Positions 11,627 through 13,866 are shown, numbered from the stretch's first letter. The stretch is 64,000 nt of DNA from Peribolospora baueri (GCA_029717555.1 JAMDHS010000038.1:62001-126000); one strand, 5' to 3'. Numbers and translations are program-made. The notes: a model not told the origin generated them from the sequence alone.

Positions 11627-13866
11627 ATGGTCTACAAGGTCGCTGACATCTCCCTCGCCGCCTTCGGCAGGAAGGAGATCGAGCTCGCCGAGGTCAGCCA
11701 GTTCGTCTCCTTTTCCGCTCGCCCGTAGTGCAGAGAAAGAGGAAATGAGCTGACCCCCATGCCTGTCACCCGCCGTCGCGGCGTCGTATCGACCTTGTAG
11801 CGCGAGATGCCCGGTCTTATGTACTTCCGCCGCAAGGTGGGCGTCGACTCCAAGTGGTCCTGCTACTCTTTATAGAGATTGCTCACCTTCGTCCCTTCAC
11901 CCCTTCCACAGTACTCCGCTTCCCAGCCTCTCAAGGGCGCCCGCATTGCTGGCTGTCTGCACATGACCATCCAGACCGCTGTGCTCATTGAGACCCTTGT
12001 CGCTCTGGGCGCTGAGGTCACCTGGTCTTCGTGAGCGTCCAGCTAGTCAGCCTAAAGGGACCTCACACTGGCTATTCGCCATGGCTATTCTGACGGCCTT
12101 TTCATCTATATCTTATTTCTCTCGACGCGAAAATTATTTGTGGCAGCTGCAACATCTTCTCCACGCAGGACCATGCCGCCGCTGCGTAAGTGTCGACTTC
12201 GCCGTGTGCCGATGGAGACAGGCGCAGTTTGGCTTCATTCTCACCGCCCCCTTTACCTTGCTTCAACAGCATTGCCGCTACCGGCGTCCCCGTGTTTGCC
12301 TGGAAGGGCGAGACTGACGAGGAGTACAACTGGTGCATTGAGCAGACTCTCAAGGGCTTCAAGGACGGCAAGCCCCTTAACATGATCCTCGACGACGGTG
12401 GAGACCTCACCTGGCTGGTGCACAACAAGTTCCCCGAGCTCCTTCCCGGCATCAAGGGTCTCTCCGAGGAGACCACTACCGGCGTGCACCACCTCTACCA
12501 GAACTTCAAGCTCGGCAAGCTCAAGTTGCCCGCCATCAACGTCAACGACTCGGTCACCAAGTCCAAGTTGTAAGTGTCTTTTCCACCATCCGCCGTACGC
12601 CGCCGAAGTCTCCTTCTCACGCATTCATTCTTTCTGCGTCCACAGCGACAACTACTACGGCTGCCGCGAGTCGCTCGTTGACGGCATCAAGCGTGCCACG
12701 GACGTCATGCTTGCCGGCAAGGTTGCTGTCGTTGCCGGCTTCGGTGACGTTGGCAAGGGTGTGAGTAATGGAATCTCATCCAGTCTGTCTGAATAGGATC
12801 GAGCTCGGCTCATCTCATGCCATTGCCTTCCTCTCCGACACCATCACAGTGCGCCGAGTCGCTCCGCTCTTACGGCGCCCGTGTGATTATCACCGAGATC
12901 GACCCTATCAACGCTCTCCAGGCCTCCATGGCTGGCTATGAGGTGAACGTCATGGACGAGGTGTGCCACTACGCCAACATCTTCGTCACCACTACTGGCA
13001 ACAGGGACATCATCGTCGGTCGCCACTTCGAGGCCATGCCCGAGGATGCCATTGTCTGCAACATCGGTCACTTCGACATCGAGGTCGATGTTTCCTGGCT
13101 CAAGGCCAACGCCGTCGAGGCCGTCAACATCAAGCCTCAGATGAGTGTCGCCTTTGATACGAATTCTGCTGATGGGGCCTGCTATCGCGACGGTCTCCTG
13201 CTGACTCTTGGTCTTTCTTTTTTTTCTCTTCCCGCGGCTTCCTGTCAGCACGTTGACCGCTTCACCATGAAGTCCGGTCGCCACGTCATTCTCCTCGCTG
13301 AGGGTCGTCTTGTCAACCTCGGCTGCGGTGAGTATACCAAGTCCGCGAGAATGGTCCCCTTATCGAAAGATTTCACTGATCTTGACTTGCACTTTGATAT
13401 CCCTCGCTTGTTTTTCCTGCCAGCTACCGGTCACCCCTCGTTCATCATGTCCGCCTCTTTCTCCAACCAGGTCCTCGCTCAGATTGCTCTGTGGACGGAG
13501 AACGAGAAGTACCCGGTGGGCGTTCACATGCTCCCCAAGGTGCTCGACGAGGAGGTTGCCTTCGCTCACCTCGAGCAGCTCGGCGTCAAGCTGGTAAGCT
13601 CCTGGACTTCTTTTCTTTGTTACCTTTGTGTTCGACCGTTTCGCAGGCTTGCTCTGTGGATGCGCACGTGCTCTTACACCGTCCACTTCCCGCCTGGTTT
13701 ACAGACCCAGCTCACGCCCGAGCAGGTCGAGTACTGTGAGTAGAAGGTCTCTGCACTTCGTACGGCCGAGTTTGCCAGCTGACACCTTGGCTCCGCTTTC
13801 GCTTCCGTTCCCTCAGCTGGCATCCCTGCCAACGGTCCCCGCAAGCCCGACCACTACCGCTACTAA
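11627..13866 (+). CDS. SAH1: S-adenosylhomocysteine hydrolase (adenosylhomocysteinase), 11 exons
   Basis: [116 protein letters not shown]-terminal KPDHYRY*; strong C-ending codon bias. Confidence 0.98.
13141..13251 (+). other. Non-canonical AT-AC intron (U2-type signals) in SAH1, 111 nt
   Basis: CCTCAG|ATGAGT...CTGCTGACT...T-rich tract...GTCAGCAC|GTTGACCGC; removing it restores the conserved IKPQVDR; no GT donor gives this junction. Confidence 0.85.

Follow-up and report, generated by a model that had tools for sequence, protein, structure and literature searches.

Intron 7 of SAH1 (adenosylhomocysteinase) is very probably, as judged from its sequence, a genuine U2-type ('type II') AT-AC intron, i.e., the major spliceosome would cut exactly at 13141 and 13251. 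Positions are counted throughout from the first letter of the window, i.e., the whole stretch of 64,000 nucleotides that was analysed. The intron (13141..13251, + strand) has AT-AC ends, a length of 111 nt, phase 0 and no in-frame stop; it is defined by the gene model and is present in the contigs of four sequencing runs. The original prediction contained two ideas. That of an AT-AC intron with U2-type signals is retained on the basis of the sequence, and that of a weak intron acting as a regulatory step finds no support.

The SAH1 gene and its host

The SAH1 coding region extends from 11627 to 13866 on the + strand and is divided by the gene model into 11 exons and 10 introns. When the ten introns (75-116 nt) are taken out, an open coding sequence of 1293 nt is obtained, i.e., 430 amino acids and a stop codon. 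The identity of the gene is based on this model, on homology to basidiomycete SAHH and on matches of the product to SAHH structures of the PDB (E ~1e-51). Many basidiomycete SAHH proteins are 82-84% identical to the product over their full length, 84% being the best full-length identity among the collected proteins.

The host is a basidiomycete, as judged from two proteins, SAHH and the mitochondrial processing peptidase beta (MPP-beta). The gene of the latter is located at 37562-39544 (+) and its product is ~75% identical to many basidiomycete proteins. Both proteins are about equally similar to those of Agaricomycotina, Ustilaginomycotina, Pucciniomycotina and Bartheletia, and the placement stops at the phylum. 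The MPP-beta gene was also considered as an additional source of introns for a splice-site model and was rejected: the tblastn matches fall in few blocks, which gives too few introns. The window also contains the gene of a SAPS (SIT4-phosphatase-associated) protein (4600-8197, -) and that of an ABC transporter, spread across three long open frames (54635-59237, +).

Borders of intron 7

Exon 7 (12850..13140, +), the C-terminal end of which reads ...VNIKPQ, finishes with the codons ATC AAG CCT CAG at 13140. It is followed by ATGAGT at 13141-13146. The last letters of the intron are CAGCAC (13246-13251), and exon 8 (13252..13327, +) begins with GTT GAC CGC. Both exons are supported by the gene model and by the alignment with SAHH structures of the PDB. 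The remaining nine introns of SAH1 are all GT-AG. The coordinates, letters, length and frame originally given for intron 7, and the nine GT-AG introns around it, are thus all found in the gene model. Intron 7 occurs as a single copy within the window, hence its interpretation as a repeat or a mobile element was rejected.

The read-through translation was aligned with human SAHH. Residues 1-98 and 135-159 of the query correspond to residues 228-325, then 325-349, of the human chain. The chain residues adjoin across the gap, thus the 37 residues in between are an exact insertion at IKPQ|VDR. Translation also agrees with the earlier statement that retention of the intron, which has no in-frame stop, would add 37 residues within IKPQ^VDR. 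Of 120 full-length relatives, 119 have KPQVDR as a contiguous motif; the sole exception is P0052, a 674-aa arthropod model. In the aligned basidiomycete proteins, residues K320-R325 are invariant (40/40).

Pairs combining a GT, GC or AT donor with an AG or AC acceptor within ~45 nt, in frame and without stop, are 28 in number. Only one of them, AT(13141)-AC(13251), yields the conserved junction. An AT start and an AC end are therefore demanded by frame and homology together, as expected for the borders of a U2-type AT-AC intron, since no other pair restores KPQVDR. As far as protein homology goes, the AT-AC borders of intron 7 are needed for SAH1. The junction was also placed on the AlphaFold model of a relative of 430 aa, the mean pLDDT of which is 79. 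It falls there on P321-Q322, a turn of two residues that separates strand 313-320 from strand 323-328.

Splice signals of intron 7

The 5' splice site cag|ATGAGT (13138..13146, +), with A at +1 (13141), can pair with the 5' end of U1 at 8 of 9 positions. This is the best value of the ten introns, the other nine having 5-7. The donor thus departs from the U2-type consensus at +1 only, its agreement being expressed as a count of U1 pairs rather than as the PWM score of Sheth et al. (2006). The candidate branch site TGCTGAC (13199..13205, +) is a perfect CTRAY, with the putative branch A at 13204, i.e., 47 nt from the 3' end. It is the sole CTRAY at 60 nt or less from the 3' end of intron 7, and a similar spacing is found in introns 1 and 3 (47 and 53 nt).

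Downstream, an uninterrupted pyrimidine run of 22 nt (13212..13233, +) is the longest of the gene, the runs of the other introns having 5-11 nt. The pyrimidine fraction of intron 7 (0.80) is also the highest among the ten introns. A branch site and a polypyrimidine tract of the U2 type are thus both present. With the best donor pairing of the ten introns, a perfect CTRAY and the longest pyrimidine run, intron 7 does not fit its earlier description as a «weak» intron. The proximal CAG (13246..13248, +) provides the only AG from the branch site to exon 8. The terminal AC (13250..13251, +), in the context GCACG, is the putative 3' splice site and the first AC after the branch site.

The predicted branch A sits in TGACT, which is compatible with DRACH (window positions 13204 and 13256), as is every branch site of CTGAC type with A, C or T as its next base.

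AT-AC ends are typical of one subclass of U12 introns. The U12 branch site is a TCCTTAAC-like motif located ~10-15 nt from the 3' end. With U12-type AT-AC introns, intron 7 has only the four end letters in common. On the contrary, its donor is ATGAGTGT, its pyrimidine tract is long and no TCCTTAAC-like branch site was found near its 3' end: the best match has 4/8 mismatches and lies 46-95 nt away. This best match is worse than that found in every other intron of SAH1. The donor ATGAGTGT has 5/8 mismatches with the U12 consensus ATATCCTT, a donor consensus that is also quoted in PMC5029451. A search of the whole window against Rfam gave 0 matches, so no snRNA was found there. According to a survey of >3000 genomes, convincing minor introns occur neither in Ascomycota nor in Basidiomycota (PMC10639083). 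The absence of U12 motifs in intron 7, already pointed out in the original prediction, is borne out by these mismatch counts, and its statement that Dikarya reportedly have no minor spliceosome is in agreement with that survey.

Support from contigs and from a second organism

Logan contigs of runs X1 and X2, which come from the same organism as the window, show 0 differences over 11600-13900, with a mean word depth of 111.6 and 88.7, respectively. These runs are possibly the assembly's own data, and they are thus independent of the assembler and not of the sample. Runs X3 and X4 come from a second organism, diverged by ~2%, and show 39 and 40 substitutions, respectively, in 2301 nt. Positions 13141 and 13251 are unchanged in the contigs of X3 and X4, this conservation being that of one relative at ~2% divergence. 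It must be noticed that the one further substitution of X4 is G>T according to the tallies of each run, which is incompatible with A13141 or C13251. Within intron 7, the only one of the listed differences is 13168 G>A; the comparison with the second organism also has 11 indels beyond the listed differences, and intron 7 may contain one of them.

Both end letters are thus present in contigs at a depth of ~72-112, in four runs and two organisms of one study. As regards a reading or assembly error at 13141 and 13251, the contigs of the four runs keep A and C.

In the exons, the two organisms differ at 8 sites, all of them synonymous changes of the third position. This indicates that SAH1 is under purifying selection in both organisms, which argues against a decaying copy of the gene. 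The divergence of intron 7 is 1/111 vs. 30/836 for the other introns; this difference is not significant (p = 0.10). When introns 6-8 (12761-13423) are grouped, 2/296 nt differ vs. 29/651 for the remaining seven (Fisher p = 0.0009), the grouping being post hoc. The low divergence of introns 6-8 could reflect a local constraint or a locally low divergence.

Proposed splicing of intron 7

In the proposed mechanism, U1 would recognise cag|AUGAGU through 8/9 base pairs, the mismatch at +1 being tolerated. U2 would pair at UGCUGAC, and factors of the U2AF type would bind the pyrimidine tract of 22 nt. The first step is expected to be normal, since recognition by U1 and U2 would be, if anything, stronger than the average of the gene. 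A(+1) would then form a non-canonical pair with C(-1) during the second step, replacing the usual G-G contact. Such a contact would favour AC 13250-13251 over the CAG located three bases upstream. The odd ends would thus be compensated by unusually strong auxiliary signals.

Splicing of intron 7 is most likely constitutive, since purifying selection acts on SAH1, a conserved housekeeping gene. The proximal CAG may compete as an acceptor, and a minor AT-AG product, with one additional His, may occur beside the AT-AC product, by analogy with the AT-AG introns known in Ganoderma lingzhi, which are more numerous there than the AT-AC ones (21 vs. 13).

Stop-free retention and regulation by SAM/SAH

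Intron 7 might otherwise be a regulated or rate-limiting step, e.g., one sensitive to SAM/SAH, where a tunable mix of the exact, +His and +37-aa products would be hidden from nonsense-mediated decay. This is unlikely. The three products are indeed all in frame, the second step might be slower with non-canonical ends, and the post hoc difference between introns 6-8 and the other seven points in the same direction. However, the ends aside, the signals of intron 7 are the strongest of the gene, and intron 7 taken alone does not diverge significantly less than the other introns. Moreover, a length in multiples of three without stop is not peculiar to intron 7. It is found again in intron 8 (96 nt) and in intron 9 (111 nt), and when the letters of intron 7 are shuffled 20000 times with the composition preserved, 54.5% of the resulting sequences have no stop. 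For comparison, 9.2% of fungal GT-AG introns have a length in multiples of three and no stop (PMC7072748).

It must be noticed that the frame 12793-13743 (+) is open across exon 7 to exon 10, introns 7, 8 and 9 (111, 96 and 111 nt) included. Seven of the ten introns of SAH1 have a length that is a multiple of three (binomial p = 0.020). Three of the ten are also stop-free, vs. the fungal base rate of 9.2% (p = 0.057).

Sensitivity to SAM would be expected to leave recognisable motifs, i.e., the METTL16 target motif and DRACH, as used in bioRxiv 10.64898/2026.10.16.759739. No METTL16-like UACAGAGAA motif was found in or beside intron 7 at 2 mismatches or fewer to TACAGAGAA. At the same threshold, SAH1 has three matches to TACAGAGAA, at 11729, 11871 and 13494. 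The A of the 3' splice site of intron 7, in GCACG, is not compatible with DRACH. Intron 7 thus differs in its motifs from SAM-responsive introns (METTL16/MAT2A, METT-10/sams, m6A at AC 3' sites), and the idea that it senses SAM/SAH gains no support from its 3' site or its motifs. In addition, a full-text literature search for AT-AC paired with adenosylhomocysteinase or S-adenosylhomocysteine hydrolase found none, i.e., no link of AT-AC introns to an SAHH gene. The 'AT-AC' strings of PMC3091305 are strings of polyketide synthase domains and not introns.

The match in intron 1 (11729-11737) reads TGCAGAGAA and has one mismatch with the METTL16 target nonamer; 11729 is T>G in the second organism. 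This match is probably due to chance, since ~0.25 such matches are expected in 2.3 kb (own estimate).

In a more specific form, the AT-AC ends and the tandem CAG/CAC would make the second step slow and tunable, and would set the dosage of active SAHH according to the state of the methyl cycle. We consider this quite improbable. If true, none of the exact, +His and +37-aa outcomes would shift the frame or be visible to nonsense-mediated decay, and the low divergence of introns 6-8 would be a regulatory constraint.

Other readings of the segment

The main product could come from the AT donor and the proximal CAG (13248), i.e., an AT-AG intron of 108 nt leaving one His between Q322 and V323. That an AT donor used with CAG 13246-13248 adds one His was correctly stated in the original prediction. 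No AG other than this CAG occurs between the branch site and exon 8, 21 AT-AG introns are described in G. lingzhi (PMC11590231) and, the junction being at a two-residue turn in the model, one extra residue might be tolerated there. Nevertheless, such a main product is improbable: it would interrupt a motif that is contiguous in 119/120 relatives and invariant in 40/40 basidiomycete proteins. The combination of A(+1) with a last G is also reported as defective and a last C as its suppressor (Parker and Siliciano 1993, via PMC5029451). Besides, with an AT-AG intron there would be no reason for the terminal C to persist in two organisms.

Canonical GT-AG borders placed elsewhere are very unlikely. 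In-frame GT-AG choices do exist, and a predictor limited to GT-AG would be forced to them: GT 13147-AG 13248 inserts MSH, and GT 13123-AG 13248 replaces VNIKPQ by H. However, these donors are poor (GTCGCC and GTCAAC, respectively) and each option alters invariant residues. More generally, the GT-AG options either insert MSH, or lose VNIKPQ or more upstream residues, or lose conserved residues of exon 8.

It is most improbable that the 111 nt are retained as a lineage-specific insertion of 37 residues. The segment is in frame and without stop, and its site is the turn between two strands; in the AlphaFold model an insertion at Q322/V323 is sterically conceivable, though within a stretch that never varies. 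On the contrary, a full set of intron signals is present and the lack of stop is expected by chance. No relative compared has an insertion at Q322/V323. Moreover, 13168 G>A falls on a first codon position and would change the encoded residue, whereas the exon differences are synonymous in 8/8 cases.

Finally, a U12-type intron, for which the ends would be typical, or an error of one base turning GT into AT, has hardly any probability left, since intron 7 contains neither the donor motif nor the branch motif of U12 introns, Basidiomycota are reported without convincing minor introns, and an error would require two wrong bases that are both present in contigs of four runs and two organisms.

Comparison with known AT-AC introns

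A U2-type AT-AC intron, the reading preferred here for intron 7, belongs to an established rare class that is already documented in Dikarya, and the SAH1 case adds to it. In five animal and plant genomes, 24 such introns were catalogued (Sheth et al. 2006, PMC1557818), and for the human AT-AC introns of SCN4A and SCN5A, dependence on U2 was demonstrated (PMC1557818). Intron 7 resembles those of SCN4A and SCN5A: its ends are AT-AC and its 5' site is otherwise a good one of the U2 type, as required by these authors (PMC1557818). The animal set has a strong ATAAGT donor consensus (PMC5029451), whereas the donor of intron 7 is ATGAGT. Intron 7 also differs from this set in its basidiomycete host and its 111 nt, and its removal by the major spliceosome is what we infer.

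AT-AC introns are rarer in fungal annotations than in animal or plant ones (PMC7072748). The closest cases are found within Dikarya. In Schizosaccharomyces pombe, the AT-AC intron of lea1 (SPBC1861.08c) was confirmed by RT-PCR and RNA-seq (bioRxiv 10.1101/226894). Like that of SAH1, it lies amid strong 5', branch and 3' signals; its host is without minor spliceosome, and the intron had earlier been mis-annotated (bioRxiv 10.1101/226894). It belongs to another gene and to Ascomycota, and it is proven by RNA, whereas intron 7 of SAH1 is predicted from DNA. In the basidiomycete G. lingzhi, 13 of ~92,000 splice sites (0.014%) are AT-AC, one of them being confirmed by Sanger sequencing (PMC11590231). 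Like intron 7, these introns are rare and break gene models; the genes are probably different.

In yeast, an engineered AT-AC intron is spliced in living cells (Parker and Siliciano 1993, cited in PMC5029451), and RPL30 contains a nested AT-AC intron used at a low level (PMC5029451). The engineered A(+1)/C(-1) introns of Saccharomyces cerevisiae have the same pair of ends as intron 7 and work with the major spliceosome; the preference given here to AC, rather than to the proximal AG, has its mechanistic basis in them. However, they are artificial mutants, whereas the pair of intron 7 is natural and fixed in two organisms.

Consequences for annotation and origin of the intron

The main value of the SAH1 case concerns annotation. 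A predictor restricted to GT-AG and GC-AG is unable to build the correct SAH1: it would insert residues or drop part of the invariant VNIKPQ, thus damaging the model of a core enzyme of the methyl cycle. It is also a natural case of A(+1)/C(-1) ends in a basidiomycete. These ends are fixed in both organisms, and the auxiliary signals that go with them are the strongest of SAH1. Such an association agrees with the view that introns of this kind persist only where their context is strong.

A possible route leading from GT-AG to AT-AC, proposed here by inference only, involves the proximal CAG: the distal G would have been lost, the proximal AG used at the cost of one His, and the G of the donor then changed to A.

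The position of the intron may be old, to judge from sequences that leave SAHH homology at the same place. The codon after KPQ was considered in ORF fragments from unannotated contigs: 111/120 are contiguous, 7 have no motif and 2 run into non-homologous sequence. The latter both begin with V, n = 2 being too few to date the intron. Three models or fragments (P0052, P0268 and P0329) lose SAHH homology exactly after (I/V)KPQ. The residues that follow are VRQPV in a bird fragment, VCSKQ... in an ENA fragment and MCPTES... in a pseudoscorpion AHCY model. A V after KPQ agrees with translation continuing into a GT intron that shares this phase-0 site, hence the possible age of the position. The M of the arthropod AHCY model might reflect another AT donor, or simply a mis-built model.

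Two further sequences deserve mention. P0001 (479 aa, source merc), the top-scoring longer match, is an SAHH in which ~200 residues are duplicated internally; it probably results from chimeric assembly and is not a relative carrying an insertion. A scan of metagenomes for the pattern N-I-K-P-Q followed by RTRAGT gave at least 115 loci, and among those listed only L098 has SAHH homology. This metagenome contig of 621 nt contains an SAHH-like gene (56% identity), where ...NIKPQ runs directly into the C-terminal region in another frame. The joint looks like an internal deletion or an assembly joint, and the gene is prokaryote-type in appearance.
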